A stretch of 64,000 bases of DNA from an uncultured Candidatus Binatia bacterium (GTDB taxonomy: Bacteria; Desulfobacterota; Binatia; Bin18), in contig CBDEWE010000002.1 of the NCBI GenBank assembly GCA_965243855.1, forward strand, positions 31,659 through 95,658, written 5' to 3'. A program made the translations under genes and the position numbers. The notes beneath the pieces were generated by a model. The model saw nothing but the letters and a program-made list of their open reading frames with translations. It had not been told where the DNA came from and did no database searches. Shown here piece by piece: positions 6,758-47,827 of the stretch; the stretch's first letter is position 1, and the number at the start of each line of letters is the position of its first letter.

Positions 6758-7494
6758 CTGCTGTTCGTTTCACGCCCGTCGCCTGGGCGCTGGCGGGTGT
6801 GCTGGTCGCGATCACTCCCCGTGCCACGCTGGCCGGCGGCATTCCTGTCCATGACTCCACCAACCTGGCGCAAATTGCCGCCACGGTGGCCGCGCTGGCG
6901 GACATCTACGTTCGGCAAAATGAGGAACTGACCGAAGCCCGCCGCGTCATGCGTTCCGTGACCGGCGCGCTGGGTCTGGGGACGCTGCACCGGACGCCCG
7001 AGCTGGCCGCGATGCGCCGCCGCCTGCCGGTCCTGATGTTCGACCTGCGCCGCCTGCAAGACCTGGCCGCCGACCCGGACCTGGTCCAGGCCTTGACGGT
7101 CCACCGCCGCCTGACCGACCGTTACGGCCTGCTGGAAGATACGGCCTACGAGCCGACAGACCCGGCCGCGCCGTATGCCCAAGCCTGGTTCGATGACCGC
7201 GACGCCCAGCTGGCGGCCGCCACGACCTCGGAAGTGGTCTATCAGAACGTGGCTGAGCGGGAAGACCTGTACGAGAACCTGATGGCCGAGCTGGACACGC
7301 GGGACAACCTCAAGGAGTCGGTCGATATTCTGGCCCGGATCAGCGCGGAAAACGGCCGGTTGCTCATGGAATTGATCCGGCTCCAGTCCAGCGCGACCCA
7401 GGCCGCCGCCACGGCCCAACTCGCCCACAAGACGCAAGCCGCCAAAGTGAGGAGGATGGCAGAGTATGAAGACCTCGATATGGCAGACTGGTAA
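6754..7494 (+). CDS. virB5: VirB5 minor pilin
   Basis: Signal peptide, GIPVHD motif, helical DNLKESVDILARI segment; overlaps the virB4 stop. Confidence 0.85.
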   Translation: MTAVRFTPVAWALAGVLVAITPRATLAGGIPVHDSTNLAQIAATVAALADIYVRQNEELTEARRVMRSVTGALGLGTLHRTPELAAMRRRLPVLMFDLRRLQDLAADPDLVQALTVHRRLTDRYGLLEDTAYEPTDPAAPYAQAWFDDRDAQLAAATTSEVVYQNVAEREDLYENLMAELDTRDNLKESVDILARISAENGRLLMELIRLQSSATQAAATAQLAHKTQAAKVRRMAEYEDLDMADW

Positions 7495-13276: not shown

Positions 13277-15046
13277 ATGGAAAACAAGTGGATTGTCGGC
13301 GTGGGCGTGGTCGTCGGCCTGGCCCTGTTGAGCTTCGCTTGGAGCGCCACGCTGACCTACCTGCTCACCGGCTCGCTCAAAGCCCTCAACGATATGCAAC
13401 CCTGGGCGGTCTACACGTTCATGTGGACCTACGGATTCACGGGGCGGGCCGGTACACTCTTGTGGAACTCCCTGCTCCTCGCGCTGGGCTTCTCCGGCCT
13501 CCTCTCCATCCCGTTCTTTTTCTTCTCCCGGCCGACCTGGTACGGGGACGCGCGCTGGGCGCGCTGGGGAGAGATTCGCAAGGCGAAGCTCCTGGCCCGG
13601 ACCGGCCTGGTCCTGGGGAAGAAGGGCGGGCAGTACTTGGTCAACTCGGAGCCTGTGCATGTCCTGGTCGCCGCCCCGACTCGTAGCGGTAAAGGCGTCG
13701 GCGTGGTCATCCCGAACCTGCTGTTCTGGCAGGACAGCGTTGTTGTCCTGGACATCAAGCACGAGAACTACGCCGCCACGGCCGGCTATCGCCGCCAGCT
13801 CGGCGGTTCCACGGTCTTTAAGTGGTCGCCGATGGACGGACGCTCGCACCGCTACAACCCCTTCGATTTCATCGCCCAAGAGGGGCCGCGGCGGATCACC
13901 GATATGCAGCTCCTGGCGACCATCCTGCTCCCCGCCCCCCCGCGTTCCGATCCCATGTGGATCAACGAGGCGCGCGACTTGTTCTTGGGGGTCGCACTGC
14001 TCGTGCTCGACGATCCGGACGCGCCCTCGACGCTCGGCCAAGTATACCGGACGCTCAAGCAGGAAATGAATTTCGCCGCGGTCGCCAAGCAAGCGCTGGA
14101 GCAGACCGACTTTCCGCTTGATCCCATCTGCCGCCAGGCCCTCGCCAATTTCGTCTACAAGGCGGACAAGGAACAGAGCGGGGTCAAGTCTACGCTCACG
14201 TCCGCGCTCAACCTGTGGGCGAATCCGAACATCGACGTGGCCACGGCCGGCTCGGATTTCGACCTGCGGACGTTCCGCAAACAGCGCGCCTCGGTCTTTG
14301 TCGGCGTGGCGCAGGATCAGCTTGTGACGCTCGCGCCGCTCCTCAACCTGTTCTTTCAGCAGGCCGTCGCCACCTTGAGCCATGCCCTGCCTGGGGAGGA
14401 CGAAACCCACGACGTGCTGTTTATGATTGACGAGTTTCCCATGCTCGGGAAAATGGAGAGCCTGGCAAAGGGTCTGGCCCTGCTCGCCGGCTACAAAATC
14501 CGGATCGTCCTCATTACCCAGGGGCTCGGCCAGCTCAAGGAGATTTACGGCCTGGGCGGCCAGGAAGGCATCCTCCAGAACTGCGCCCTCCAAGTCTTCT
14601 TTGCCTCGAACGACGACAGCACCACCAATTACGTCTCCGGCCGCCTTGGCACACGGACGGTCCAGATCAAAAGCCGCAGCCAGGCCCAGGACTGGAAAAC
14701 CACTACGTCTATGAGCTACATCGCCCGGCCGCTGATGGCGCCGGAGGAAGTCCGCCGGCTCGATCCCGCCAAAACCATCCTGTTCAAGGAGGGCTCACGC
14801 CCGCTGCTGGCCCGCAAGATCAGGTATTACAGCGACCGGCTATTCACCCGCCGGCTGCTTGATCCGCCGCCGGTCCCCGTCCTGGAAATCCCCAAACCAC
14901 CCTTGAGCCGCGCCGAACGCGCGGGCGTTGAGCTTGCCGAGATGATACAGCGCAACGCGCCCGCGCAAGAGCCGGGCGATACGCCGACGCCGGCCGAGCT
15001 GGAAGCGATCTATACCCGCTTCGACGCCTCCCGGCCGGCCGCGTAA
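13277..15046 (+). CDS. virD4: VirD4/TraG coupling protein
   Basis: Two N-terminal TMs, YGDARWA, APTRSGKG, MIDEFP. Confidence 0.97.
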   Translation: MENKWIVGVGVVVGLALLSFAWSATLTYLLTGSLKALNDMQPWAVYTFMWTYGFTGRAGTLLWNSLLLALGFSGLLSIPFFFFSRPTWYGDARWARWGEIRKAKLLARTGLVLGKKGGQYLVNSEPVHVLVAAPTRSGKGVGVVIPNLLFWQDSVVVLDIKHENYAATAGYRRQLGGSTVFKWSPMDGRSHRYNPFDFIAQEGPRRITDMQLLATILLPAPPRSDPMWINEARDLFLGVALLVLDDPDAPSTLGQVYRTLKQEMNFAAVAKQALEQTDFPLDPICRQALANFVYKADKEQSGVKSTLTSALNLWANPNIDVATAGSDFDLRTFRKQRASVFVGVAQDQLVTLAPLLNLFFQQAVATLSHALPGEDETHDVLFMIDEFPMLGKMESLAKGLALLAGYKIRIVLITQGLGQLKEIYGLGGQEGILQNCALQVFFASNDDSTTNYVSGRLGTRTVQIKSRSQAQDWKTTTSMSYIARPLMAPEEVRRLDPAKTILFKEGSRPLLARKIRYYSDRLFTRRLLDPPPVPVLEIPKPPLSRAERAGVELAEMIQRNAPAQEPGDTPTPAELEAIYTRFDASRPAA

Positions 15047-15057
15047 AGGAGGCGGCG

Positions 15058-17406
15058 ATGGATCAGGAGACGTTGAACAAGACGCTGGCCGCCCATCAAA
15101 TCTGGCTGGATAGCGCCGGCCAGGACGGCCAGCGCGCCGACCTGTCGGGAGCGGACCTGCGCTTCCTCAATCTGAGTGGGGTGAGGCTCAAGGAAGCCGT
15201 CTTGCGCGGCGTCGACTTGGTGGGCACGAATCTGACTGGCGCGGACCTCGAAGCAGCGGACCTCGAAGGCGCCACGCTGTTAGGGGCGCGGCTGGAAGGG
15301 GCGAATCTGGAGCGCGTTCACGCGCCTGGGGTGAATTTCTTTAGCGCCAATATGACGGCCGCAAGTCTGCGCCACGCCGACTTGCGGGAGGCGGTATTAC
15401 AAGAGGCGACCTTGACGCAAGCCAAGTTGCACGACGCGACCTTGACGGAGGCGAACCTACTCAAAGCGCAGCTAGAGGAGGCCGACCTCACCGCCGCAGT
15501 CCTGGAAGGGACGACACTGGATGAGGCGAATCTGCGGGACGCCACCCTCCAGCGCGCTCGCCTCGAACACGCTACCCTCATTGACGCGCGTTTATCGGGC
15601 GCGGACCTGGAGGCCGCACAACTGGATAAGGCCGTCCTTATCCGCACAGACCTGGAGGCGGCAAAGCTGGAAAAGGCCAGTTTCGAGGACGCCCACATGG
15701 AAGGGGCGAAGCTCAAGAAGGCCCTCCTTCTTGGCACGGTTTTGGACGGGGCAAATATGGCCGGTGCCGAAGTCGAGCGCGCCGACTTGAGGGATACGCC
15801 GGAGGGGACGAGACAGCCAGCGCTCGATAAGATTTTGGCGGATCATGCCTTGTGGCTAGGTCAAAAGGGCGGGCGTCGCGCCGAGCTGGCAATGGCGGAC
15901 CTGCGCGGGGTCGATTTACAGGGCGCTGACCTCAGCCATGCGGACTTGCAGGGAGCCTTATTGGACGACGCCAACCTGAACGATACAAAGCTCCGTTCAG
16001 TGATCCTCAGCGGCGCCAGCCTGGCGCGCGCATCTCTCCAGCGTACGGATATGGAAGGCGCGGTCTTGCGCGCGGCAAACTTTACCGAAGCCGATCTCCA
16101 GCAGGCCGACCTGACCGCTGTGATGGCGAAAAATGCGATGTTTGAGGCCGCGAATCTGGAGCGTACGGCCTTGCGCGCGGCCGACTTGACCGCCGCGGAT
16201 TTACAAAAGTCGTTCCTTGACCGGGCAACGCTGGTGGGCGCGAATCTGACGGGGGCAGACCTCCGGGTGGCGGATTGTACCGCTACCGTCTTTCTCGAAG
16301 CGCGGCTACCGGGCGCCGACCTCGGCCTGGCGAAGCTCGATCTGGCGGACCTGCGCGGCGCGGATCTGCGCGGCACGAGCCTGACGGAAGCGACGCTAGA
16401 AGGCGCCGACCTGGAAGGCGCGGCTTTAGAGGCGGACGCCTCCCCTCTCACCCGCCGCGATATGATCGAGGAGATTCTAGCCGAGCATCAAACCTGGTTG
16501 GAGACGGAAGGGGAGGGCCGCCGCGCCAATTTGGAGATGGCCGACCTGGCGCACCTGGACCTGCGCGGGGTCAACCTCTCGATGGCGCAACTCCACGGCG
16601 CGCGCCTGGAAGGGGCGGATCTGCGCGAGGCGAAGCTTATCGAGGCGGATATGTTAGGGACTCGGGCCTCTCAGGCCGACATGCGCGGCGTAGTGATGGA
16701 TGGGGTGAATCTGGAGCGCGCCACCCTGGAACGAACCAAGTTACAGAATAGTATCCTGACTCGGGGAAATCTCACCGAAGCCTATCTATGGGGCGCAGAC
16801 CTTCACGGCGCCCAAGCCGAGTGCGTGAACTTCCTTGACGCCCAGCTCCATGGCGCCGACCTCACCGGCGCCCATCTGGCGGTCAGCTCCTTTCAGGGCG
16901 CAGACCTGACGGAAGCGACGCTCAATGGCGCCGACCTGGAAGGCGCAGACTTGAAAAGGGCCTGGCTCATATCAACCGAGCTGGAAGGGGCCAATTTAGG
17001 CCGGACGATTCTGGAACGAGCGGCCGTCCCGGAAGTGGACAGCCCCGCGTCGCAGCCTACGGTCTGGGAGACGGTCAAGCAGCGCGTCGGGGCCTGGTTC
17101 TCGCGAGAAGACGCGCCCGCCCCGGACCCGCCGCCGGCTGCGCCACGCCCCGAGGCCCGGACGGACCGCGACTCGGCCGAAGGCTCGCAGCTCGCGTCCG
17201 CCAAGCGGACGCCGACGCGGGAGGCCGCCCAAGCCGCCTGCGCGCAGATTCTGGCCCATCCCGAGGAGACCCGGGCGGCCATCGCGCAGATGGCGGACCC
17301 GGCCGACCGGGCCAAAGCCGAACGGCTCTTGGCAACGGTTGAGCAGGCCGCGGCCGCCCACCAGCGGACGCCTGAGCGCACCGCTGCGGCCGAGCGAGAC
17401 CGCTAG
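15058..17406 (+). CDS. Pentapeptide-repeat protein with three repeat modules and a charged C-tail
   Basis: Extensive A(D/N)L-type pentapeptides and three H..WL...G.RA(D/E/N)L caps; RBS GGAGG 11 nt after the virD4 stop. Confidence 0.9.
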   Translation: MDQETLNKTLAAHQIWLDSAGQDGQRADLSGADLRFLNLSGVRLKEAVLRGVDLVGTNLTGADLEAADLEGATLLGARLEGANLERVHAPGVNFFSANMTAASLRHADLREAVLQEATLTQAKLHDATLTEANLLKAQLEEADLTAAVLEGTTLDEANLRDATLQRARLEHATLIDARLSGADLEAAQLDKAVLIRTDLEAAKLEKASFEDAHMEGAKLKKALLLGTVLDGANMAGAEVERADLRDTPEGTRQPALDKILADHALWLGQKGGRRAELAMADLRGVDLQGADLSHADLQGALLDDANLNDTKLRSVILSGASLARASLQRTDMEGAVLRAANFTEADLQQADLTAVMAKNAMFEAANLERTALRAADLTAADLQKSFLDRATLVGANLTGADLRVADCTATVFLEARLPGADLGLAKLDLADLRGADLRGTSLTEATLEGADLEGAALEADASPLTRRDMIEEILAEHQTWLETEGEGRRANLEMADLAHLDLRGVNLSMAQLHGARLEGADLREAKLIEADMLGTRASQADMRGVVMDGVNLERATLERTKLQNSILTRGNLTEAYLWGADLHGAQAECVNFLDAQLHGADLTGAHLAVSSFQGADLTEATLNGADLEGADLKRAWLISTELEGANLGRTILERAAVPEVDSPASQPTVWETVKQRVGAWFSREDAPAPDPPPAAPRPEARTDRDSAEGSQLASAKRTPTREAAQAACAQILAHPEETRAAIAQMADPADRAKAERLLATVEQAAAAHQRTPERTAAAERDR

Positions 17407-31755: not shown

Positions 31756-32040
31756 ATGACGCAGTTCACCACGCAGAACAACAACCGGAGACGCCTTACC
31801 ATACTGCTCATCCTCGGAGTTCTGTTCCTCTCGCCGGAAAGAGGTGTGCGGGCAGCCCCTGAATCCCAGCCGGAGCAGTGTAGGGTTTTGCGGCTACACC
31901 ATGCGTATCCTGCCTCTCCTAATCCGTACTCTTTGTACCTTTTTCCTGGTTGCTCTGAGACCGTGGCATATCTGGACGTGATGCACAAGCGAGCAGGCCG
32001 CCCCCGCTCGAGAGTGTCGTACGAGGTAGAACCGCGATGA
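31756..32040 (+). CDS. Small secreted or membrane-anchored protein
   Basis: RBS GGAGGA, hydrophobic N-terminus, ATGA overlap with the next gene. Confidence 0.55.
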   Translation: MTQFTTQNNNRRRLTILLILGVLFLSPERGVRAAPESQPEQCRVLRLHHAYPASPNPYSLYLFPGCSETVAYLDVMHKRAGRPRSRVSYEVEPR

Positions 32041-33182
32041 GCGACCAGGACGCCTTTGACCGTATCATCACGGCTCTGCACGACGCCGCGCTGGACGACA
32101 CCGTGTGGCTCAGCGCGTTGGGGCTTGTGAATGAGGCAGTCGGGACGGTGGGCAGTCATCTGCTGATCCTGAGCGGGCAGACGCAGGCCGACCTCACCGT
32201 CCTATTCGAGAGCACGCACTACTTCGACCCCCCCAGCGGCTTGGACCAAGTGTATACCCAGCGCTACTTTCCCCACGACGAAAGGATACCCCGCTTCCTC
32301 CGTCTGGCCGATAGCCGCATGGTACACGTCCCCACGCTCTACACCGCACGGGAGCGGAAAACCTCCCCGACCTATAACGAACTTTTGCGCCGCTCTCATG
32401 GTCGCCAGGGTTTGAATGTGCGCCTGGACGGCCCGGAGAGCTGCCACATCGCCTGGGCACTGGCCGACCCTTTTGACTCTAACGGCTGGGGCGCCGAACA
32501 TCTCACAATCCTCACCAAGTTGTTGCCCCACCTGCGCCAATTTGTCCGCGTCCGGCAGACATTGGCCAAAGCCGACGCCCTCCATGCCCCGCTCACCCAC
32601 TTGCTCGATAACGCCCTGATCGGTGTCCTGTTCCTTGACCGCCACGGGAAGATCATCGAGACCAACGCTCGCGCCCTACGTATCCTCCAGCGGGCCAACA
32701 GCGTGAGAGACCGGGACGGATTCCTGCACGCCCGGCACCCCACCGACGACACCACCCTTCAGCGGCTCCTCGTCCACGCCCTGCCCCACTGGGGGCAGCC
32801 CGTCTCCAGCGGCTCCATGACAGTTCAGCGGGTTCCCGGCACCCTCCCGCTGACTGTGCATCTCAGCCCGGTCCCTCACCGGGCCGACTTCGGCGCCCAG
32901 CGTATTGCCGCCTTCGTGTTGCTGATCGATCCTGTCGAGCGTCCCCAGATTGATCCCACCTGCCTCGCTACGACACTCGGCCTCACCCGGGCCGAGAGCC
33001 GCGTGGCCGCCGCCCTAGCCGCTGGCTACAGCGTCCGGGACATCGCCGTGGCCACGCGCCGGACCCAGGCGACGGTGCGCTCCCACGTCAGGCAGCTCCA
33101 CCACAAACTGGGCGTCCACACTCAGGCCGACCTGGTCCGGCTGGTGCTGACCACCGCCGGGGTGCCCCTGCCGCGCGCCTGA
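32037..33182 (+). CDS. LuxR-family HTH regulator, paralog of 30231..31370
   Basis: Same MSDQDAF.RI start, LNVRLDGP, LLPHLRQFVRVRQ and HTH. Confidence 0.9.
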   Translation: MSDQDAFDRIITALHDAALDDTVWLSALGLVNEAVGTVGSHLLILSGQTQADLTVLFESTHYFDPPSGLDQVYTQRYFPHDERIPRFLRLADSRMVHVPTLYTARERKTSPTYNELLRRSHGRQGLNVRLDGPESCHIAWALADPFDSNGWGAEHLTILTKLLPHLRQFVRVRQTLAKADALHAPLTHLLDNALIGVLFLDRHGKIIETNARALRILQRANSVRDRDGFLHARHPTDDTTLQRLLVHALPHWGQPVSSGSMTVQRVPGTLPLTVHLSPVPHRADFGAQRIAAFVLLIDPVERPQIDPTCLATTLGLTRAESRVAAALAAGYSVRDIAVATRRTQATVRSHVRQLHHKLGVHTQADLVRLVLTTAGVPLPRA

Positions 33183-33307
33183 CTGCCCCTCCCTACCCCA
33201 AAATTTTCGTCCATTGCCGCAAAAATACCCAAAATTGGGGAGGAAATCGGGACGGGGGGTGTGATAAGGACCCCAAGCATTCCCCCAGGGAGGCCATGTG
33301 TATAGCC

Positions 33308-36079
33308 ATGCGTATATCTATTCTGCTGCGTCTGTTCGTGCGTCTCGCGGTGCTGGCTCCGGCGCTGGTTCTCGCCGTGGAAGCCCTCTGCCCCACTGTC
33401 GTCTTCGCCCAAGCCACCCTGGAGAACCCCCGGTCCGGCTCCTTCCAGAGCGGGGTCGCCGCCATCTCCGGCTGGGCGTGTGACGCCAATGAGATTCTCA
33501 TCGAACTCAACGGCGTGCCCTACCGCGCCGGCTACCCGACAACAAGGCCGGATACCCTGGGGCGCTGTGGCGATACCGACAACGGCTTCAGCCTGCTGTG
33601 GAACTGGAACAACCTGGGAGCAGGGAGGCATACGGTCCGGGCGCTGCTTGACGGGGTAGAGTTTGCCAACACGACCGTGCACGTAACCACCTTTGGGGAG
33701 GACCCCTTCCCACGGGGGTGGAGTGGCACGTTTAACCTGCCCGACTTCCCCACCTCCGGCGAGACCACCATTGTCCGGTGGGAAGAGTCGCTCCAGAAAT
33801 TTGTCATCACGGACGGGCAGCCGCCTACCGGCGGGGGATACAACCAGGTAGCGGGCGTGAGCGCCGTATTGGAAAACCCGTCGCTGGGGTCAGCCCAGAG
33901 TGGAGTGGGTGTGATTTCCGGCTGGGCGTGCGAAGCCCAGAACATCGTCATCGAACTCAACGGGGAACCCTACCGAGCGGGCTACCCCACCACAAGGCCG
34001 GATACCCTGGGGCGCTGTGGCGATACCAATAATGGCTTCAGTCTATTGTGGAACTGGAACAACCTGGGAGCGGGAACGCATACGGTGCGCGCCCTGATTG
34101 ATGGGCAGGAATTTGCCACCGCGACCGTATGGGTGACGACCTTTGGGGAAGACCCGTTCCCGCGGGGCTGGAGTGGCACGTTTGATCTATCCGACTTTCC
34201 CACCTCCGGCGAGACCGCCGTCGTCCAGTGGGAAGAGTCGCTCCAGAACTTTGTCATCAGCGCGGCGTTGCCCACACGGCAACTGATGGCCGTCCATCCT
34301 GTTGTGGCGCTCCCGGCGGACGTCCAGATTCCGAATGTGGCGGTGCGGTCTGTCTACGCCGAGACCGCCGAGGTGCTCGCGAGCCCCAAGCCGTCGCTGC
34401 TCCTGGCCGAAGACACGGAGGGCACCGTGCTGCTGGGCGTGGCCAATAGGGATGGGGGCGTGCTGGGCGAGCGGGATGGCCGCGTCGAAGTCAGCGTGGA
34501 CAGTACGGCGGTCATGCTGGTGGCGCTCCGCGCCGGCTATGCCGTCCACGAAATTGATCAGGAGGTAGTGGCCGCGATTCAAGGGCATGCCGAGTATGCC
34601 GACCTGACCGTGACGCTCGCGGCGCTCGTGGAGGCAGACAAAAACTTTCTGGATACCCTGATATACCACCCCGATGTCGTAGCAACCATCGAAACCATCA
34701 GTGGGATATTCGGGGCCAACGGGCCACACAGCCGTCGCGGCCTGAGCCTGAGGTATAGTCTGGCGGGTGTCGCCTCCGCGCGCGAGGGCGGCCCCACCCC
34801 CTTATCGCCAAGCGTCACGGGGAAGACAGACGCGGACGACTGTGCACACCGCGCCGCCCTCTGGAGCCTGGCCGAAGGGGCAGACCTCGCCGCGATGTTC
34901 GCCCCCGTAGGGTCCGTCGCAGCCGCCCTGCGCCGGGCGGCCACGGCCGCACAGTCCCCACCCCCGCCGGATCAGTCAGACCCACAGGACACCGAGGAGC
35001 TCTCCCTGAGCGAGATCATGAAATTCTTCACCGACCTGACGGCGGCGCAGCACGCGGGGCCGGGACCCCCTGCTCCCGAGACGCAACCTGCGGGCGAAGG
35101 GGAATGTAACGCGCCTACCGCGCCCGGGGATGGTGGCGGGGAATGGTGGGAGCTGGCGATGCGCGGCTATATGGACCATCGGGGGACCGGAGGGGCTGGG
35201 CAGGAGAACCCCTTCCGCGCCTGCCTGCCCCCGGACCCACCCACCAACCTGCGGATAACGGAGGTGGGCGCGGACTTCTTAGATCTGGAATGGGATCCCC
35301 TGCCCGAGGGCGGGGGGGAGGGCTATACAGTTCTTCAGCACTATGCGTTTGACCAAGGCCTCCGCAGTTTGCCGAAGGCCCTTGGCACCGTGGAAACGAC
35401 TCGCGTGCGAGTGCGTGGGATAGGCGCAGGGGACGTATGTTTTACTGTCAGGGCCGTAAGCCGATTGTGGACAGAGGACAGCGGAGATGCGGCATACCGC
35501 GGGGAAGACGTGTGGGCAGGTGCAGTATGTATTCATGACAGTAACATTCGCAGCGCGTTCAGCCCAGACAGGGAAGGGGGATGGTGTCGGTTAATCGGGA
35601 TAGGAACCATGCAGAGCGACGGGCGTCCTTATAGGTCACACCAATGCATAAACAAGCCGTTGGAAGAGCCGTGCAGTGCGACAGATTTTGACGAGGAATC
35701 AGGAGCCGAGATCACCCGCATAATAGTGGCTAGCGGCCTGACCACGCGCGAACGATGTCTGAGTAGTAGGCCCCCATTCGATCGCTACACATTGGAGCCT
35801 GTACCGCAGCCGGACGGTCCATCAGAGGAAGCAGAATTATGTGAAGTGATTCATACCTACCGCGAGGAAGGATGTAAGGGCGAGCGGGAGTGCATCAAGA
35901 GGGAGATCGTGTGGGAGCCATGCAAAGAAGCGTCCACAGTCCAAATCCTACAGGCTAGATTCAGGCAGTACGCTAAGAAGTTGTTCGAGTATTTCTGCGA
36001 GAAGGAGTGCACGCCCGACGGAGAGGTCCGCTGTAAGGTGAGAGAGGAACGCGGAACCCACTTCGGCATCCGCGGGTAG
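33308..36079 (+). CDS. Large secreted mosaic protein: 2x ~135-aa repeat domain, FN3-like domain, Cys-rich C-terminus
   Basis: Signal peptide; tandem LENP..GS.QSGV..ISGWAC domains; PPTNLRITEV...LEWD...FTVRAV. Confidence 0.8.
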   Translation: MRISILLRLFVRLAVLAPALVLAVEALCPTVVFAQATLENPRSGSFQSGVAAISGWACDANEILIELNGVPYRAGYPTTRPDTLGRCGDTDNGFSLLWNWNNLGAGRHTVRALLDGVEFANTTVHVTTFGEDPFPRGWSGTFNLPDFPTSGETTIVRWEESLQKFVITDGQPPTGGGYNQVAGVSAVLENPSLGSAQSGVGVISGWACEAQNIVIELNGEPYRAGYPTTRPDTLGRCGDTNNGFSLLWNWNNLGAGTHTVRALIDGQEFATATVWVTTFGEDPFPRGWSGTFDLSDFPTSGETAVVQWEESLQNFVISAALPTRQLMAVHPVVALPADVQIPNVAVRSVYAETAEVLASPKPSLLLAEDTEGTVLLGVANRDGGVLGERDGRVEVSVDSTAVMLVALRAGYAVHEIDQEVVAAIQGHAEYADLTVTLAALVEADKNFLDTLIYHPDVVATIETISGIFGANGPHSRRGLSLRYSLAGVASAREGGPTPLSPSVTGKTDADDCAHRAALWSLAEGADLAAMFAPVGSVAAALRRAATAAQSPPPPDQSDPQDTEELSLSEIMKFFTDLTAAQHAGPGPPAPETQPAGEGECNAPTAPGDGGGEWWELAMRGYMDHRGTGGAGQENPFRACLPPDPPTNLRITEVGADFLDLEWDPLPEGGGEGYTVLQHYAFDQGLRSLPKALGTVETTRVRVRGIGAGDVCFTVRAVSRLWTEDSGDAAYRGEDVWAGAVCIHDSNIRSAFSPDREGGWCRLIGIGTMQSDGRPYRSHQCINKPLEEPCSATDFDEESGAEITRIIVASGLTTRERCLSSRPPFDRYTLEPVPQPDGPSEEAELCEVIHTYREEGCKGERECIKREIVWEPCKEASTVQILQARFRQYAKKLFEYFCEKECTPDGEVRCKVREERGTHFGIRG

Positions 36080-36613
36080 AGCGCGTAACTGAGCCGAGGG
36101 CCAGTACCCCCCGTCGCCGTTCAGCCCATCGGCCTGGGCGAGGTTGGTGCCCAAGGGCGTTTGGTGTACCTCAGAATTGTTATCGTGTTATGGAAAGAGC
36201 CAATGAAAGAATACTCTCGTCAAGTTTAGGCTTGGCTTGCGAACAAAAACAATCGTGGTCGTGTGATTGCTACGGCGCTCAGGGCGTTCGTGTTTTTCCG
36301 TTGCCACTGCCCGTGTCTTCGCGGGAAGCAGCGATGAAGACCGCAAAAAGAGGGGACACAATGCCGCAAGTAGGTGAGCTTCAAAGACAACGCCCTGCTG
36401 TCGCTCTCACGGGATATCGGGCCGGGCACGCCCTCCGGGCTCCCGGGCGTAATTCTGAGTGTGGGCCGTAATGGACATGGCGCAGGGGAAAGCCATGAGT
36501 AGCTGCATTATCGCCGCTAGCGAGGAGCCCCTGGAGTTAGCTGGAGAATAAAGTTAGGCTCGCCCTCACCTGGCTCCGCCGGAACCGAGGAACAAGTTTA
36601 AGGAGGTACGCTC

Positions 36614-38950
36614 ATGGATTTGTTAAGTCAGCTCCGTGCCGTTTGCAAGCGGCTTGTCGACCGTGGCTGGAACACCGTTCTCGAAACCCACGGGCTTGAT
36701 CTCGAAACCGCAATCGCCCGTGACAATGTTGGACTCGCTGACGCTCTCGCGGCGAAGCTCAGTGTTGATCGGACGGTACCCGGCTTTGGCGACTTCACCA
36801 CGGCAGGCAACCAAGCGATCACTCCCGGCAAGCCGGCCGCCAGCCTGCTTTATCACGCGATGGCGAGCCCGCTCGTCCATCCGAACGCGACCGGCACTGC
36901 CAGCGATCCGGAGGCCTATCCGTCAATCGAGGATCTCGACACCGTCGAGAACTACATCTACAGTCTGAGGAAGCTGGACTTGTCTTCTTTGCGCAATCCA
37001 GTCATCGTCGTTTTCGCCTATCAATACCGTACGGCTAGCGGCAGTCCACACCGTCAGCATGCCGACCTTGCTTTCTCGCGTTGTGGCGTTGCCCGTGCCG
37101 GGACCGCCCCCGCAGCCTACAATCCTCCGGGCCGATATTTCGGTCCTTTGGGAGACAATGGCGCGATCTGCGCGCTGCCAGCCCGCTATGCCGCCTTTAT
37201 TGCGGAGTATAACCGGCCACTGAACACCGATACGATTCTCAGTCGCCAACGCGGCGACCAGAGCCGTATGTTCGCAATCCCTATCCACAAGCTGTTCCCG
37301 GGAAACGAGTGCCTTGAAGGCACCAGCCTTTCCATTGGCTTCCAGGAGTTTCACCGTAACGAGAAGCTCAAGCGTATTCACACCGAAGGCGGTGTGCGCG
37401 TCGTCGATGGATTCGATGTCAATGTCTTTCCTTTTGTTCGCGACAGTGAGAATAGTGACGACCTCGTCCGGCTTGAGAGGCAGGGTGCCTCCGTCAATGT
37501 CGTACCTATTGATCACCCGGAACTGGTCCGCACTGCTGTGCAGGCGAACAGCGTCTCCGGGAGACAAGAGATCGTACGCTTCATCGTTCCAGCGGAGACG
37601 GACAACAACCGCTTTTCTACGTCATTGAAGATTCCAGCCAATCAGAAGACAAATGCACGGCACGCGCCGGAATATGTCAACATCCGGCATAAGGTCGAAA
37701 AGGCAGGTAGCACTCTGGGGATCGTCGATCTGAAGGATTTACCAGCCGGAAAATTCGAGGAAACGATCAAAGAGGGCAAATATGAAGCAGCGCACTTTAT
37801 CGATGACAGCTGCGACGGCGTGCTTATCCCGCAGATTGAGGGCCTGCCACCGCTTAACGGGACAGCATGGACTAATCTTCCGGCCTATTCGCTGGTTACT
37901 GCGCCTGACTTTATCCCCTTCGCGCATCAGATCGACATCGCCGCTTGGTCCCGGTTATCGTCCCGCAACAGAAAGCCGCACTTCAAGCAGGGCGATCCCG
38001 ATCCCCTTTGCGAGGGACGTGCGCGGCCAAACCTGACGCTACCCTTGCCTGGGCAGCTAGGTACTCAGGCCTTCAACGTGCATGACGAGACAGTGGTAGC
38101 GATTGTCGGCTCGCCGGCCTTGTCGGAGGGTCAAAGCAGTGCCGGTGTGCCCAAGCACATTGTGAGCTATCTGACCGATGCCGCCGCCGATGTCTTCGCA
38201 CCGGGCTGGGACGTCTCAATCGACGACCGCAATGGAGTCCGTTTCTATACCTCGCATGGGCTTGGCTCCCCGTTCCCCGAGGATGCGAAGCTCTGTGCCG
38301 CGATAAACTCCTACTGGCCGGCGGCCGCTCCGGACGCGTCACGGACTTTCGGGTTCCAGTATGCTCCAACAGCGATCCCGATGCTGGACAACGAGCTTGG
38401 CTACCACCCGCAAAACCCACAGGTTCTGGCGAGTAACGTTCAAGCTAGTCTCGGCTGGGATGGTGAGACCGGACCATTTTTTGAAGAGATCAACGGTAAG
38501 ACCTACATAAACTTTGCGAGCGTCCACCGCTCAGACTATGTGACCAACGCCCTTAACCGAAAACTCACCGCGAAAGAGATAAATTCTGTCACCTCCGATG
38601 ATTTGATCGAGCGAATGGAGGCGCTTCAGAGCTGTATCTCCTCCCTCCCGCCCTCGGAGGATATTGTCGCCGGAACGAGGCTTTGGTTGGTCCGGGCGGA
38701 GTATGTCGTCGACTGGTCGAACCATGGTTCGCCAGCCGACAAGTCTCTAACCCACAGCGGCTATATCTACGAGTTCGGCCTGACCAACGATAGCCCGCTG
38801 CAGTCCCACCAACCCGTAGCAGATGATATGACGCGACTTCGCTACGAGATATCCGATAGGTACGAGTGCCATCTCTCCGCCTCGCTTCTCTTCTTCCGGA
38901 AGAAAGGTGACGTCAACTGGACGCGGGGCAAGCGAGACCCTACAGCGTAG
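36614..38950 (+). CDS. Divergent LodA/GoxA-like (putative CTQ) quinoprotein
   Basis: Collinear motifs GVARAGT, HRNEK, DDSCDG, AYSLVTAPDFIP, FAPGWDVS, and PFPED557AKLC561...YW568PAAAPD; strong AAGGAGG RBS. Confidence 0.65.
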   Translation: MDLLSQLRAVCKRLVDRGWNTVLETHGLDLETAIARDNVGLADALAAKLSVDRTVPGFGDFTTAGNQAITPGKPAASLLYHAMASPLVHPNATGTASDPEAYPSIEDLDTVENYIYSLRKLDLSSLRNPVIVVFAYQYRTASGSPHRQHADLAFSRCGVARAGTAPAAYNPPGRYFGPLGDNGAICALPARYAAFIAEYNRPLNTDTILSRQRGDQSRMFAIPIHKLFPGNECLEGTSLSIGFQEFHRNEKLKRIHTEGGVRVVDGFDVNVFPFVRDSENSDDLVRLERQGASVNVVPIDHPELVRTAVQANSVSGRQEIVRFIVPAETDNNRFSTSLKIPANQKTNARHAPEYVNIRHKVEKAGSTLGIVDLKDLPAGKFEETIKEGKYEAAHFIDDSCDGVLIPQIEGLPPLNGTAWTNLPAYSLVTAPDFIPFAHQIDIAAWSRLSSRNRKPHFKQGDPDPLCEGRARPNLTLPLPGQLGTQAFNVHDETVVAIVGSPALSEGQSSAGVPKHIVSYLTDAAADVFAPGWDVSIDDRNGVRFYTSHGLGSPFPEDAKLCAAINSYWPAAAPDASRTFGFQYAPTAIPMLDNELGYHPQNPQVLASNVQASLGWDGETGPFFEEINGKTYINFASVHRSDYVTNALNRKLTAKEINSVTSDDLIERMEALQSCISSLPPSEDIVAGTRLWLVRAEYVVDWSNHGSPADKSLTHSGYIYEFGLTNDSPLQSHQPVADDMTRLRYEISDRYECHLSASLLFFRKKGDVNWTRGKRDPTA

Positions 38951-38963
38951 GGATCGCCTCCAC

Positions 38964-39989
38964 ATGACGCGCCGATCTGACCTGCTCATCGTTGGAGGAG
39001 GCCCTGCCGGCCTCGCAGCGGCGATCGTCGCTCGTAGCGAGGGGGCTGCTGTCCGAATTCTAATACCGGAGGAGTATCCCCGCGACCGGCCAGGCGAGAC
39101 CCTGCATCCTGGGATTGAGCCGCTTCTCGACCGTCTCGGCGTCGGCGACGCGATCCGCGCTGGTGCCTATAAGCGCTTTCCTGGTATTCGGGTTGCGACG
39201 CTGGCTGGTGAACGGTTTGAGCGCTATGGCGAGACGAATGGCGTACCTTGGCTTGGTTTTCAGATCCCAGGAAGGTCGTTCGACAACGCGTTGAGGGCGC
39301 GAGCGGAGGCGCTTGGTGTCGAAATCCACGCAGGCAGAGAAGCTCGGACCGTCGAGTTGGACGGTAAGCGTGTTGCCGCCATCGACGGCTATACGGTCCG
39401 ATTTGTTCTCGACTGTGCGGGCGGACGGCATTGGCTTGGTCGTCGGCTGGGAATCGGAATTGATCGGCTATCCACGCCGTTGGTGGCACACTACGGCTAT
39501 GTCGAGATGGACACGAGGGGCGAAGACATACGGCCGCTGTTCGCGTTTGACGAGACCGGCTGGCTTTGGACCGCTCGAATCTCGGACACTCTCATGCATT
39601 GGACACGGCTGAACCTCATCGGCGACCTGCCGGAACGGGAATGGGTGCCGGAACAATGGGCCAACCACACCGGTGCCACGCGCCCGCGCCGTGCGAACGT
39701 GACATGGCGGCGGTGCCAGAGGGTGGCGGGGGACGGCTATTTTATTTGCGGAGACGCAGCCTCGGTTGTCGATCCCGCCTCCTCGCACGGCGTGCTGAAC
39801 GCCATTATGTCTGGCATGCTCGCCGGCCAATACGCTGCCCAGGCCAGCCGCGATCCGCGGCTCTCTGAGACAGCACGGCGCGCTTACGAGGCGTGGATGT
39901 TCAGCCGGATGAACGCCGACTTCAGCGAACTCGCCAAACGCTACGCCGCGCTCCCTTGCCTGCCAGATTGGGCGGCGATGCGGGCATAA
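38964..39989 (+). CDS. LodB/GoxB-like FAD-dependent oxidoreductase
   Basis: GGGPAG, RPGETLHPGIEPLL..LG, DCAGG, GDAASVVDPASSHGV. Confidence 0.8.
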   Translation: MTRRSDLLIVGGGPAGLAAAIVARSEGAAVRILIPEEYPRDRPGETLHPGIEPLLDRLGVGDAIRAGAYKRFPGIRVATLAGERFERYGETNGVPWLGFQIPGRSFDNALRARAEALGVEIHAGREARTVELDGKRVAAIDGYTVRFVLDCAGGRHWLGRRLGIGIDRLSTPLVAHYGYVEMDTRGEDIRPLFAFDETGWLWTARISDTLMHWTRLNLIGDLPEREWVPEQWANHTGATRPRRANVTWRRCQRVAGDGYFICGDAASVVDPASSHGVLNAIMSGMLAGQYAAQASRDPRLSETARRAYEAWMFSRMNADFSELAKRYAALPCLPDWAAMRA

Positions 39990-40602: not shown

Positions 40603-40631
40603 TTGATTGCAACGCAATCACCATATAGGTT
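40603..40631 (+). promoter_or_regulatory. fitAB-type promoter and operator
   Basis: TTGATT-17-TAGGTT overlapped by the palindrome TGATTGC-AAC-GCAATCA. Confidence 0.55.
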
Positions 40632-40633
40632 CG

Positions 40634-40894
40634 ATGCAAGGAGATGCCACGCTGGCCAGTATCACCATCCGCAATCTCGATGACGATGTGAAGTCCAGGC
40701 TGCGCCTCCGTGCGGCGGGCAACGGCCGTTCCATGGAAGAGGAGGCACGCGTGATCCTACGGGATGCGGTCGGACGCAGGCCGAGTTCCCAGAACCTCGC
40801 CGCCATCATCCGCACACACTTCGGGCCTGCCAAAGGGGTAGACCTGGAGTTGTCCCCGCGCGATGCAGGCCGCGAGCCGCCCTCCTTCGCCTGA
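40634..40894 (+). CDS. FitA-like ribbon-helix-helix antitoxin
   Basis: ASITIRNLDDDVK.RLR.RAA.NGRSMEEEAR.IL; exact start uncertain (ATG 40634 or CTG 40652). Confidence 0.85.
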   Translation: MQGDATLASITIRNLDDDVKSRLRLRAAGNGRSMEEEARVILRDAVGRRPSSQNLAAIIRTHFGPAKGVDLELSPRDAGREPPSFA

Positions 40895-40904
40895 GGGAAC
40901 GGCC

Positions 40905-41018
40905 ATGTTTCTCCTGTATACCAATGTCGTATCCGAGTTGATGCGCCCGTCTCCGGCTCCCGCGGTCGAGGCGTGGGTTGCCAGCCACCCCGTCAAGAAC
41001 CTGTTCTTCTCGGCGGCC
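40905..41018 (+). pseudogene. Truncated PIN/VapC (FitB-like) toxin with a catalytic D-to-Y change
   Basis: MFLLYTNVVSELMRPSP..V.AW (expected LLDTN); homology stops after LFFSA where it meets 41038..41406. Confidence 0.8.
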
Positions 41019-41037
41019 TGCTCCTGGGCCGTGAGGC

Positions 41038-41406
41038 TCAACCCGCAATCTTCTGGCGGATGGTCTGCACTTCCTCGGCCGAGACACGCCGCCACGCCGG
41101 ACGACGGAAGGTCCGACCGGCGCGGTGGGTGAACACGACCATGTCCCACGTCTCGGGGAGGGGCTTTTGCCCACGGCCCGCCGAACGCTCCGGGTAGTGC
41201 TCGACCCATATCAGCCCCTCGGGGTCAATGGTCAGGTCTTCCTGGCATAGGCGCGTCGCAATAATCTCGGCCGCGTTCGTCACGCTGGTGCCGGGGTTGT
41301 TCTCCAGCTCGGTACAGATGACCAGCGTCGTCCGCCCCGCACTGCGGACGATCTCCAGGTCACATTTCGAGTCGCAGTTCCGAAAGCCGGGGTATTCGTA
41401 CAGCAT
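41038..41406 (-). CDS. Conserved hypothetical protein of mobile elements
   Basis: TEL.NNPGTSVTNAAE..AT...LIWVEHY; RBS AGGAGG. Confidence 0.75.
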   Translation of the reverse strand: MLYEYPGFRNCDSKCDLEIVRSAGRTTLVICTELENNPGTSVTNAAEIIATRLCQEDLTIDPEGLIWVEHYPERSAGRGQKPLPETWDMVVFTHRAGRTFRRPAWRRVSAEEVQTIRQKIAG

Positions 41407-41833: not shown

Positions 41834-42712
41834 TTAGTCCTCGGCCTCGCCGTCGTCCCCGAGAATACAGTCTGCCGCCCGCTGGGCCTGGGCCGCTGCG
41901 TGCACCAGCAGCTTGGTGTCGTCCTGGAGTTTCCGCAGCCACCCCTGGATGTAGCTGGCCGAGTCGTCGCAGGTCCGATTCTCGATCCCCGCCACACCGC
42001 ACAGGAAGGCCGCCCCCATCTCTGCGCACAACTCCTCTTTGCTGTAATTGGTATCCCCAAAGGCCACCATATCAACCAGGGTCGGCCGATTCAGCCGGCT
42101 TGGGTGGCCGGTGGCATGGGTCAGTTCGTGAAAGAGGGTGGAATAGTATAGTTCGGGAGCGGCAAACCGCCCCGGCTCCGGCATGGTCACGCGGTCCGCG
42201 CTGGGCCGGTAGAAAGCCCTCACACCGGCGTGGACGATCTCCGGTCGGTTCGGCATGTGCTCAACGGTCCGCTCGCAGGACAGGATTTTTTGCGCCGCGT
42301 CCATCTCGGGGGCCTGAATCTCCGCCCGCTTCCGCCACGCCTCGGGCAACTCGCATTGGGTCGCGTTGAACACGGTAAAGGACCGCGCCACGGCGAAGCG
42401 CTCGGGCTTGGCATCGTCCGCTGCGTCCGCCTCGGGTCGCTTCTCCACCCATTTCCAGAACACGACCTCAACCCCGCGCTCGCCCTTCTTGACGTGGCCG
42501 CCGATCTTCTGCGCCTGGCGGTAGGTCAGCCAAAACGGGGAGCCCCCGGCCGCCATCAACACCCACACATTCACCCCCCGGTACACGTTGCCGCTGACAA
42601 GGTTCCGGGGCTGCCCCTGGCGTCCATTCCAGGGCTTCTGCCACGGCACAACCCCCTGCGCTAAGGCATCCATAATGCGTGTGGTCACACTTGCGTAAAC
42701 GTCCCTGCTCAT
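41834..42712 (-). CDS. ardC: ArdC anti-restriction protein (ssDNA-binding plus zincin-like domain)
   Basis: VVPWQKPW, YRGVN, HELTHATGH..RLNR, YSKEELCAE. Confidence 0.95.
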   Translation of the reverse strand: MSRDVYASVTTRIMDALAQGVVPWQKPWNGRQGQPRNLVSGNVYRGVNVWVLMAAGGSPFWLTYRQAQKIGGHVKKGERGVEVVFWKWVEKRPEADAADDAKPERFAVARSFTVFNATQCELPEAWRKRAEIQAPEMDAAQKILSCERTVEHMPNRPEIVHAGVRAFYRPSADRVTMPEPGRFAAPELYYSTLFHELTHATGHPSRLNRPTLVDMVAFGDTNYSKEELCAEMGAAFLCGVAGIENRTCDDSASYIQGWLRKLQDDTKLLVHAAAQAQRAADCILGDDGEAED

Positions 42713-46369: not shown

Positions 46370-47827
46370 TCATCTAACGCTCGCGTCGCTTCGTTCCGAC
46401 TGGTGATCCTCCCCCCTGGAATACCCAGCAAGCGCGTCGGCGCGCTCTTTCAGGTACTCTGAATACCGCAACTGATTGGCCAAGTCATCGCCCTCAAGAC
46501 CACTAAGGAGGAGATTTTTGAGGTCTCGCTGTGCTACTGGAATTGAGCGCCAGGGCACAATGGCGTCGAGAGGAGCCATGAGGCGTTTGCGCATCCCTTC
46601 GTCGGCGGTGCGCCGATGCTCTGTCGTAAGCAGGTCAGGCCGCTCAAGATAAATGAGTCGTAGCGCCAGGCGACGGTATCTCGTGTCACTGAGTTGCAGG
46701 GCCAGTCCTCGCCGTTTCTCCCAAGGGGCTGTTTGAAAGCGTTGCATGAGGACTTCATCTTGCTGCGGCGGGAATTCATGCCCGTAGAGTTGCTCCTCGA
46801 CGTGCGGTGACGGCGGATAAATTGGCTCTGCAGCCTGCACCGCTTTTCGAAGCCGTTCCAAGAAAGGCTTATCCTCTCGGAGTTGCACGACTTGATCCAA
46901 GACCTCGTCTTCGTTCTCGAAAGGGGCAAGATGTTCTTGAGTCGCCTCATAGAGGGCCCATAAGGTCGGCGCTGCGTTCGTGCGGATTGTCACGATCGGT
47001 CGCGTTCTACTCTTGCAGAGAGAGATCAGTGCCTCGTCCGACATCCCTCGAAGCGTGTCAAGGTCGGCGCTTACATCAAGGCAATAATGCCGTATCGCCA
47101 GTTCACTATGTTTGCCGATTAAGGTCACAACGCGGGCGCGATAATTATTGCCGATAGTCTCCGATACCAAAAATGCGTCTTCCTCGGTGATGAAAGATTC
47201 AACACTTGCCTTCTGGCTGAATCTCAGAAATTGCGACCAGATCTCAGGCGCGCGATTCCTGATAGTCTGGCAGAGTGCGTGTGTAGTCGAGACATCGGCC
47301 ATGGCGTCGTGTGACAGCGGCGCAGCAATACCGTTCGCTTCGGCGAGCGCCTTGAGTTTGAAGATGGTGCGACCATTCTCGTCGGTCGCTGGCTTTATCA
47401 CGTCTGGCCGAATGGCTGCCGTAAGGCGACACAGATTTAGAACGTCAGCTCGCGCATTTCCCTGCGTGTTCGTCAGAAATGGGCGGTAAAGACACTGGTA
47501 GAATGCCCGGCGTAAGAATTCTTCATCGAACGATAAGGAGTTAAAGCCGAGAAACAGGGTAGGGGACCAGGACTCTAGGATGTGGCGAACCTTTGCGACC
47601 ATCGCGTAATGCGAGGGCAAAGAGGTATCGAGGAGTTGCTCTATGCGAAGCCCTGTCACATGCATCGCCTCCGGCGAAGGGATGACATGAGGCATCAGGC
47701 GGCAGCGGATCTGAAATTTCTCTGTGATGTTCAGTTCCGGGTCCGTGCGGACAGCCGCGAACTGAACGATCTGATCAAAACTCTTCGTTAGTCCTGTGGT
47801 CTCGACGTCGTAGATGACAAAACTCAA
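46370..47827 (-). CDS. Exonuclease I (SbcB)-like DEDDh 3'-5' exonuclease
   Basis: YDVETTG, GFNSLSFDEEFLR, HDAMADV; TTG start overlaps the ImmA stop. Confidence 0.9.
   Translation of the reverse strand: MSFVIYDVETTGLTKSFDQIVQFAAVRTDPELNITEKFQIRCRLMPHVIPSPEAMHVTGLRIEQLLDTSLPSHYAMVAKVRHILESWSPTLFLGFNSLSFDEEFLRRAFYQCLYRPFLTNTQGNARADVLNLCRLTAAIRPDVIKPATDENGRTIFKLKALAEANGIAAPLSHDAMADVSTTHALCQTIRNRAPEIWSQFLRFSQKASVESFITEEDAFLVSETIGNNYRARVVTLIGKHSELAIRHYCLDVSADLDTLRGMSDEALISLCKSRTRPIVTIRTNAAPTLWALYEATQEHLAPFENEDEVLDQVVQLREDKPFLERLRKAVQAAEPIYPPSPHVEEQLYGHEFPPQQDEVLMQRFQTAPWEKRRGLALQLSDTRYRRLALRLIYLERPDLLTTEHRRTADEGMRKRLMAPLDAIVPWRSIPVAQRDLKNLLLSGLEGDDLANQLRYSEYLKERADALAGYSRGEDHQSERSDASVR

Follow-up and report, generated by a model that had tools for sequence, protein, structure and literature searches.

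What does a large protein that matches no recognised family model do when its gene is directly followed by that of a flavoprotein, on what looks like a conjugative element? This question is raised by a locus in a stretch of 64,000 nucleotides (the window, to which positions refer unless a replicon is named) from an uncultured Candidatus Binatia bacterium (GenBank assembly GCA_965243855.1, contig CBDEWE010000002.1, forward-strand positions 31,659 to 95,658), in which two open reading frames (ORFs), hereafter ORF A and ORF B, follow each other on the same strand. An original prediction, made from the letters of the DNA and a list of its ORFs, had proposed that ORF A is a distant relative of the LodA/GoxA amino-acid oxidases, which carry a cysteine tryptophylquinone (CTQ) cofactor, and that ORF B is its partner flavoprotein. 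On the evidence presented below, ORF A is probably a CTQ-type quinoprotein matured by ORF B; that it would specifically be an oxidase releasing hydrogen peroxide (H2O2) is a proposal that we hold less firmly. Both ORFs were found where they had been placed, together with the motifs assigned to them: GVARAGT (residues 158-164), DDSCDG (397-402) and the PFPED557...W568PAAAPD stretch were all located at those residues in the translation of ORF A, and RPGETLHPG and GDAA..VDPASSHGV in that of ORF B. The ATG start codon of ORF A is preceded by a strong, near-consensus Shine-Dalgarno sequence, AAGGAGGT, and, as ORF B begins 13 nt past the stop codon of ORF A, the pair looks like an operon (coordinates in Table 1).

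The relationship between ORF A and LodA/GoxA was evaluated by comparing sequence profiles of the two groups. As a genuine LodA/GoxA seed we used a protein encoded by a Paraburkholderia plasmid and annotated by PGAP as 'LodA/GoxA family CTQ-dependent oxidase', from which a set of 120 relatives was obtained, all of them with the domains PF17990 and PF18417, and profiles were compared with hhalign, first with 31 ORF A-family against 25 LodA/GoxA sequences, and then with 237 against 120. The consensus of the 25 LodA/GoxA-family proteins (IGIARLGNS, HLANKKA, DDTSDGP, AWVIVAPPxFAP, FFPGIExT, and LPWQADFYEC...WWPAARPDD) agreed with the one given in the original prediction. Three co-linear, non-overlapping segments, corresponding to the motifs proposed there, were aligned: ORF A 397-440 with LodA-family 210-250 (P 3e-5, probability 73%), 157-169 with 13-25 (P 0.0046), and 520-574 with 415-483 (P 0.042), the latter covering both PGWDVS/PGIExT and the Cys motif. 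All three were strengthened when the profiles were deepened, reaching scores of 53.3, 35.3 and 27.4, with a top-three sum of 116, while reversed profiles gave at most about 20, and 30 column-shuffled templates at most 26.3, with a top-three sum of at most 40.9, so that the resemblance exceeds what chance provides. Moreover, in reciprocal searches with hmmsearch, the DDxxDG...A[WY]xxV..P.F.P segment, which in ORF A ends with AYSLVTAPDFIP (residues 424-435), found the other family at up to 24 and 22 bits, these matches lying at 20-24 bits and the reversed-sequence controls below 0 bits.

Conservation within the ORF A family follows the same segments, as G158, R161 and G163 are near-invariant, and P530 is kept in all 237 sequences, with G531 and W532 in 236 of them. 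The pairing of HRNEK with HLANKK is less certain: it is co-linear and the best local match between the anchors, and H247 and K251 are kept in 235/237 and 232/237 sequences, respectively, but it is not significant on its own (P = 0.76). Since hhalign puts residue 157 of ORF A on residue 13 of the LodA family, the extra N-terminal region that had been noticed earlier is confirmed, at about 155 residues; it has conserved W19, H81 and H89, and in the structure model its beginning is mostly helical. Between the anchors, the inter-anchor comparison gave just non-significant, co-linear matches, and the C-terminal 200 residues of ORF A aligned with nothing. Taken together, these profile comparisons suggest a genuine but very remote relationship between ORF A and LodA/GoxA, with a shared core of around 110 alignable residues.

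We then focused our attention on the predicted cofactor site, in which ORF A carries the residues conserved in CTQ enzymes, including an Asp four residues before the Cys, the cofactor itself being a prediction. In the motif D557-x3-C561-x5-Y-W568-P, residues E556, D557, C561, W568, P573 and D574 are invariant in 237/237 homologues, while position 567 is occupied by F, M or Y across the family, and not by the W of a WW pair. The hhalign alignment puts D557, C561 and W568 on PWQAD-x3-C..WWPaaRPD of the LodA family, and the site thus corresponds to D512/C516/W581 of LodA, D678/C682/W697 of GoxA, and D33/C37/W43 of the gamma subunit of QHNDH. In LodA, whose 2ymw chain numbering equals the native one plus 20, the PDB chain reads P-W-Q-A-D512-F-F-N-C516, and the CTQ pair is C516-W581, 65 residues apart (PMC4417212). 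W580-W581-P nevertheless constitutes the 'WWP' motif of the family, displaced by an insert of about 60 residues, as seen in the insert display of hmmsearch. The Cys-Trp spacing is 15 in the GoxA chain (D678-x3-C682-x13-W696-W697) and 5 in most LodA-like proteins (D-x3-C-x3-W-W-P). In the QHNDH gamma subunit, with D33, C37 and W42-W43, CTQ is formed by C37 and W43, and this Asp is described as common to all tryptophylquinone enzymes (PMC7876137). The QHNDH gamma model also gives weak matches over the CTQ stretch, both to ORF A and to a genuine LodA-like protein.

Given the spacing of 65 residues in LodA, the Trp named in the original prediction was suspected to be wrong, and W615 ('GWDGE', 54 residues past C561) was considered in its place. 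This candidate was rejected: W615 is kept in just 230/237 sequences, LodA has a Tyr at the later 'W-A-R-G' position, and both the C682-x13-W696-W697 arrangement of GoxA and the position of W580-W581-P of LodA within the 'WWP' motif speak for the nearer residue. The alignments to the PDB chains, with the insert recognised in LodA, therefore support C561 and W568 as the equivalent of the CTQ pair, as first proposed. As the same D-x3-C...W-P signature is found in LodA, GoxA and the QHNDH gamma subunit, W568 is the predicted quinone Trp.

A CTQ protein of the LodA/GoxA kind would need a maturing flavoprotein, and ORF B was analyzed accordingly. It has the Pfam domains FAD_binding_3 and Trp_halogenase, and its best NCBIfam families are QhpG, GoxB, CmlS, MenJ and LodB; all 30 members of its family that we tested matched QhpG (best E 2.8e-38), CmlS, GoxB and LodB. 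With the LodB-like protein that accompanies the LodA-family oxidase of Paraburkholderia, ORF B aligned over its full length at 28% identity (E 2e-19). Its AlphaFold model (predicted local distance difference test score, pLDDT, 89.8) was closest in Foldseek to the variant-B halogenases Bmp2, FasV, CmlS, PltA and CndH (E about 1e-25, TM 0.74-0.84; CmlS E 1.4e-24), with QhpG (7ctq_A) at E 3e-19 and TM 0.70. The residues needed for halogenation are nevertheless missing. Residue 72, which occupies the position of the halogenase catalytic Lys in alignments to FasV, CmlS (K71), CndH and Bmp2, is His in 101, Phe in 9, Val in 8, Asp in 1 and Pro in 1 of 120 members, and Lys in none. Likewise, the halogenase WxWxIP motif has become WxWxA[RK], with W200 and W202 in 120/120 and A204 in 117/120 members, and 'IP' in 0/120. 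A halogenase activity of ORF B was rejected on these two counts, although the PGAP name 'tryptophan 7-halogenase' is found on many members of the family. The remaining WxW pair is also present in QhpG, as the channel residues W181/W183 (PMC7876137). Because the halogenase Lys and 'IP' are never present, ORF B would be a protein with a halogenase fold and no halogenation residues, which is what a hydroxylase of the QhpG/GoxB/LodB type should look like. The LodB/GoxB-like character attributed to ORF B stands as far as the lost residues and the top NCBIfam matches are concerned, while in sequence the protein is nearer to the halogenases; this nearness is compatible with a maturase role, as QhpG and GoxB are themselves reported to be most similar to CmlS (PMC7876137).

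The association of both genes was further evaluated in 84 loci of ORF A relatives from many phyla, 80 of which could be assessed for the flavoprotein. A homologue of the latter was clustered with the ORF A relative in 76 of these 80 loci, and was directly 3' of it in 7/7 contexts inspected by hand. Among the 76, it lies 5' in seven, one has the order A-peroxidase-flavoprotein, and in the others it lies 3'. The flavoprotein is thus linked nearly always, but not always as the check attached to the original prediction would have it. In Rubrivivax (L049), Pseudomonas sp. GM80 (L051) and Zoogloea (L064), where it is 5' of its ORF A-type neighbour, the two are about 1.2 kb apart, an interval that probably holds another gene, and the ORF A homologues are longer (approximately 850-870 aa). 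When neighbouring ORFs were clustered across the 84 loci, the only recurrent partners besides the flavoprotein were two types of peroxidase, adjacent in 30/84 loci, namely the animal-haem type (16/84) and the dye-decolourising (DyP) type (14/84; both Pfam-confirmed in examples), whose genes are usually directly 5' of the ORF A relative and on the same strand. The recruitment of two unrelated H2O2-using peroxidases points indirectly to H2O2 production by the module. Trios in which a peroxidase gene joins those of the ORF A homologue and the flavoprotein are seen repeatedly, with either type of peroxidase (L010, and also L001, L002, L004 and L005); L010 is the Bacillus thuringiensis plasmid p415642 (NZ_CP094625.1), with the trio at 2139-7023 of that plasmid and genes for S8 peptidases just 3' of it.

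From these observations we infer cofactor formation, oxidase chemistry, H2O2 release and a biological role along the following lines. After translation of ORF A, Trp568 would be hydroxylated, oxidised to the quinone and cross-linked to Cys561, with the invariant Asp557 placed, four residues before Cys561, as in every known tryptophylquinone enzyme. ORF B, as a halogenase-fold monooxygenase using flavin adenine dinucleotide (FAD), broadly comparable to QhpG, GoxB and LodB, would carry out or complete this maturation. Mature ORF A may then act on a primary amine or an amino acid, converting it by oxidation into an aldehyde or keto acid with release of ammonia, and re-oxidation of its cofactor by O2 would yield H2O2, which, in about one third of the lineages, a neighbouring haem peroxidase of the animal-haem or DyP type could use or remove. 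In the window, the module would act without peroxidase or signal peptide, as cargo on a conjugative element. An antimicrobial or defence role, as had been suggested, is speculation.

It could also be envisaged that ORF A uses CTQ, or another Trp-derived quinone, as a dehydrogenase similar to QHNDH or MADH, handing its electrons to a protein or quinone acceptor and releasing no H2O2, with the peroxidases employed otherwise, for instance in a maturation of the MauG kind. The CTQ signature is indeed common to the QHNDH gamma subunit, which belongs to a dehydrogenase; a subgroup of the ORF A family that is predicted to be exported by twin-arginine translocation (Tat) resembles periplasmic amine dehydrogenases; haem enzymes can serve as tryptophylquinone maturases, as MauG does (PMC7876137); and around 64% of the loci lack a peroxidase. 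Nevertheless, we consider this possibility unlikely, as the 84 neighbourhoods contain no recurrent gene for a cytochrome, a cupredoxin or any other electron acceptor, the homology that can be detected for the catalytic protein links it to the oxidases LodA/GoxA, and the presence of two unrelated peroxidase families fits a shared need for H2O2 better than a specific maturation role.

Several results weigh against regarding ORF A as a quinoprotein matured by ORF B. ORF A matches no Pfam family at E<=1, the LodA_N and LodA_C Pfam domains are not found at E<=10 in any of 31 diverse homologues, and no LodA/GoxA match was obtained in NCBIfam, where the sole match of ORF A, below threshold, is to the QHNDH gamma-subunit model QH_gamma (residues 525-578, E 0.17). 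By comparison, a genuine LodA-family member matches LodA_N (PF17990) at 5e-71 and LodA_C (PF18417) at 1e-29. Among PDB sequences, ORF A gives two matches at chance level (E >=0.6) and no meaningful one, and the 31-sequence family profile matches none. The core that hhalign can align covers about 110 of the 778 residues, two of its three segments are weak individually, and in global mode the alignment to the LodA family is meaningless. With regard to structure, the AlphaFold2 model of ORF A is good overall (pLDDT 88.2; predicted TM score 0.90), and its top match by Foldseek among 350,542 PDB chains is LodA (2ymw_A, E 1.4e-3), 100-fold stronger than the runner-up (E 0.14), but this match is marginal (probability 0.66, TM 0.13-0.14, root-mean-square deviation 18.9 A), and the lowest confidence of the model falls on the predicted cofactor site and the residues shortly before it (residues 521-530 and 551-570, with a pLDDT of 59-62). 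These low-confidence stretches correspond to about 38174-38323 of the window, and their native conformation may depend on the Cys-Trp cross-link. As for the partner genes, ORF B lies far below the equivalog cut-offs, with 79 bits for QhpG (cut-off 240), 77 for GoxB (400) and 48 for LodB (400), and its family profile is nearer to halogenases (FasV 2.9e-51, CmlS 1.5e-41) than to QhpG (3.4e-15). In addition, no flavoprotein was found within 5 kb in 4/80 loci, and there is no peroxidase gene in the window, nor adjacent to the ORF A relatives in the window's own clade.

Part of this evidence would also agree with ORF A being a relative of the LodA fold that does without quinone chemistry, in which the Cys, Trp and Asp serve to bind a metal, to form another cross-link or to maintain the structure, and the flavoprotein is a redox partner. 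The extreme divergence, with an additional N-terminus of some 155 residues and a different C-terminal part, the low confidence of the model at the motif, and the F, M or Y at position 567 in place of the W of the WW pair are all in favor of such a protein. We find it improbable nonetheless, since the invariance of D557, C561 and W568 in 237 sequences from many phyla, together with a near-obligate QhpG/GoxB/LodB-like flavoprotein, is what would be expected of a maintained CTQ system. Finally, a module for tailoring small molecules or peptides, in which ORF B halogenates or hydroxylates a metabolite, ORF A is an unrelated enzyme or scaffold and the LodA-like motifs are convergent or fortuitous, might be suggested by the natural-product halogenases FasV, CmlS, CndH, Bmp2 and PltA being the nearest solved relatives of the ORF B family, by its 'tryptophan 7-halogenase' names and by the failure of ORF A in every LodA family model, but it deserves little credence when the family has neither the catalytic Lys nor 'IP' in any of 120 members, the 84 neighbourhoods show no recurrent carrier protein, non-ribosomal peptide synthetase/polyketide synthase (NRPS/PKS) or flavin reductase, three co-linear profile matches along with LodA as top fold match are unlikely by chance, and the invariant D-x3-C...W-P would be left with no obvious explanation.

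Returning to ORF A as a probable CTQ-type quinoprotein, it was also possible to observe how widespread its family is. A word-indexed search recovered 323 homologues, all of about 770 aa and named 'hypothetical protein' wherever they are named in public records, and an exhaustive search found 987 representative clusters at 50% identity (the best 150 of the 987 matches being those listed). Relatives are present in 270 of 185,579 species-representative genomes, and are distributed over Alpha-, Beta- and Gammaproteobacteria, Myxococcota, Cyanobacteria, Acidobacteriota, Bacteroidota, Verrucomicrobiota, Planctomycetota, Bacillota and Actinomycetota; the hosts include Pseudoalteromonas luteoviolacea, Pseudomonas, Paraburkholderia, Nostoc, Archangium, Paenibacillus and Bacillus thuringiensis plasmids. 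As the group fails the curated LodA/GoxA models (PF17990, PF18417 and the NCBIfam/PGAP 'LodA/GoxA family CTQ-dependent oxidase'), we do not file it under LodA/GoxA, but regard it as a family in its own right, remotely related to LodA/GoxA and most likely working in the same way. ORF A indeed belongs to no recognised family model, and the unrecognised subfamily proposed originally is, if anything, a separate family, for which no published description was found in the open-access literature searched.

The family is also diverse in its architecture. In a subgroup of approximately 900 aa, 30/41 members match the motif of Tat signal peptides, which sit ahead of the family-specific N-terminal region; these are P0281-P0378 (about 850-960 aa), with starts such as MKRRDFI... 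or MQRRQFIA.... Export by this route fits a protein that folds and gains its cofactor in the cytoplasm before leaving it. No leader peptide is present in the ORF A of the window. Moreover, fused relatives carry a ferritin-like, subtilase S8 (twice), ConA-like lectin or peptidoglycan-binding domain.

To our knowledge, tryptophylquinone cofactors are known from few lineages, namely MADH/AADH (tryptophan tryptophylquinone), QHNDH (CTQ) and LodA/GoxA (CTQ). On balance, we lean towards the view that the ORF A family represents a third, previously unrecognised tryptophylquinone lineage, with about 1,000 clusters in at least 270 species of many phyla, its own maturase subfamily derived from halogenases, often an oxidase-peroxidase couple, sometimes Tat export, and a substrate or role unlike those of the known lysine and glycine oxidases, which in the window would be spreading by conjugation. 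Attack on competitors, oxidation of amines in cell wall or peptides, or a peroxidase-made product are examples of the roles that such a lineage could have. If this is true, the known distribution of tryptophylquinone chemistry would be much widened by a family of this size and phylogenetic breadth, as it escapes the present models of Pfam and NCBIfam. It would also provide new oxidases of biotechnological interest, e.g., H2O2-generating antimicrobial and biosensor enzymes, and a clear case of a flavin-halogenase scaffold turned into a protein-modifying hydroxylase. That haem peroxidases of two unrelated kinds are repeatedly found beside the module suggests that oxidase and peroxidase form a built-in system, and, being carried by a conjugative element, the module is horizontally mobile.

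The conjugative context proposed for the locus was borne out by the genes of the window, which encode the proteins VirB4, VirB6, VirB9, VirB10, VirB11 and VirD4 of a type IV secretion system (T4SS), as well as the anti-restriction protein ArdC. The T4SS genes flank the operon on one side, and the antitoxin and ArdC genes on the other. Antitoxin genes and ArdC are typical accessory genes of plasmids and integrative and conjugative elements (ICEs). Because these genes flank it, the operon looks like cargo of a plasmid or ICE. A megablast search among PLSDB plasmids returned no near relative of the T4SS region.

Table 1. Features of the window and of the ORF A/ORF B operon, in window positions.
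Feature	Position	Strand	Remark
ORF A	36614..38950	+	778 aa, ORF call; predicted CTQ quinoprotein of a large unannotated family
ORF B	38964..39989	+	341 aa, ATG start of the public gene calls (P0121); predicted maturase of ORF A
ORF B, alternative GTG start	38907	+	longer ORF 38907-39989 in the ORF list
Shine-Dalgarno AAGGAGGT	36600..36607	+	6 nt 5' of the ORF A start codon, read from the sequence
ORF A N-terminal region, ~155 residues	36614..37081	+	ORF A-family-specific, none in LodA/GoxA
C-GVARAGT-APAAY, residues 157-169	37082..37120	+	similar to LodA-family N-terminal IGIARLGNSPxEF, P = 0.0046
HRNEK, residues 247-251	37352..37366	+	candidate equivalent of LodA-family HLANKK
DDSCDG...AYSLVTAPDFIP, residues 397-435	37802..37918	+	strongest segment shared with LodA/GoxA (DDTSDGPVTA...AWVIVAPPxFAP)
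FAPGWDVS, residues 528-535	38195..38218	+	similar to LodA-family FFPGIExT, in segment with P = 0.042
PFPE-D557-AKL-C561-AAINSY-W568-PAAAPD	38270..38335	+	predicted CTQ site, from the translation
Codons of the predicted CTQ site	D557 38282-38284, C561 38294-38296, W568 38315-38317	+	
ORF B R71-F72	39174..39179	+	residue 72 at the halogenase catalytic Lys position
ORF B W200-L-W202-T-A-R	39561..39578	+	degenerate halogenase WxWxIP
VirB4/TrbE	4352-6757		T4SS gene
TrbL/VirB6, CagX/VirB9, TrbI/VirB10			T4SS genes in the window
VirB11-type ATPase			T4SS gene in the window
VirD4/TraG coupling protein	13277-15046		T4SS gene
FitA-like ribbon-helix-helix antitoxin	40607-40894	+	just 3' of the ORF A/ORF B operon
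Short ORF overlapping the antitoxin ORF	40863-41132	+	could be the toxin partner
ArdC anti-restriction protein	41834-42712	-	after the antitoxin

Further genes of the window were recorded alongside the operon. Just 5' of ORF A, a 927-aa ORF (33296-36079, +) begins with a hydrophobic stretch resembling a signal peptide, and it is itself preceded by a regulator of the LuxR/GerE family with a long N-terminal sensor-like region (32037-33182, +), which may or may not control the 927-aa ORF and the operon. The 927-aa ORF contains two tandem copies of a domain of about 135 aa (SGWAC.A..I.IE.NG…Y.T.R.DT...CGDT.NGF.LL.NWN.LG.G.H), of which one C-terminal copy, with 51-52% identity, is found in another ORF of 778 aa (786-3122, -); Pfam gives just a weak Big_7 match for this domain. 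This other 778-aa ORF was considered as a paralogue of ORF A, and rejected when both were compared. Directly 3' of the VirD4/TraG gene, a 782-aa protein (15058-17406, +) consists almost wholly of pentapeptide repeats (Pfam E 1e-121). A protein with a PAPS-reductase domain (25842-26921, -) and an SbcB-like exonuclease (RNase_T and Exonuc_X-T_C; 46370-47827, -) represent further cargo or maintenance genes of the element.

Compared with known systems, ORF B and its family share with the variant-B halogenases (CmlS, CndH, Bmp2, PltA, FasV), its closest relatives in solved structure and in sequence, the motifs GxGxxG, GE[ST]L, the WxW pair and GDAA..DP.[FS]S.G, but they differ from them in having mostly His, Phe or Val in place of the catalytic Lys, in lacking 'IP', and in being linked to the ORF A family and not to carrier-protein or NRPS/PKS genes. 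QhpG, the NCBIfam family that ORF B and its relatives match best, is itself a flavoprotein of the halogenase fold (CmlS-like), and hydroxylates a peptidyl Trp. Its substrate QhpC, the QHNDH gamma subunit, has D33-x3-C37-x4-W42-W43 where ORF A has D557-x3-C561-x5-Y567-W568; unlike ORF A, a single protein, QhpC is a peptide of about 80 residues that receives three thioether cross-links from a radical-SAM enzyme and works within a haem-containing dehydrogenase complex, and no radical-SAM, QhpA or QhpB genes are linked to ORF A.

From LodA of Marinomonas mediterranea and GoxA of Pseudoalteromonas luteoviolacea, ORF A is distinguished by its longer N-terminus, by some 200 C-terminal residues that cannot be aligned, by the changes from PWQAD to PFPED and from the WW pair to [FYM]W in its family, by being matched through profile methods alone, and by the Tat-exported subgroup, while ORF B forms a subfamily separate from LodB/GoxB, at 48-80 bits against equivalog cut-offs of 240-400. 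Nevertheless, the likeness to these systems extends from the gene pair to the residue level: in both families the flavoprotein gene adjoins that of the large protein, the Asp-Cys-Trp signature is invariant, and the motifs come in the same order, with G[IV]AR[LV]G followed by DD[ST]xDG...A[WY]x[LI]V..P.F.P, then by PG[WI][DE].[ST], and then by P[WF].[AE]D-x3-C...W-P..[AR]PD, LodA being also the best, though marginal, fold match of the ORF A model in the PDB. Moreover, haem or iron redox proteins occur as fusions or neighbours of some members in both families, as LodA-like proteins with catalase-like and PF14518 domains have been described (PMC4417212), and their counterparts in the ORF A family are the neighbouring peroxidases and a ferritin-like domain.

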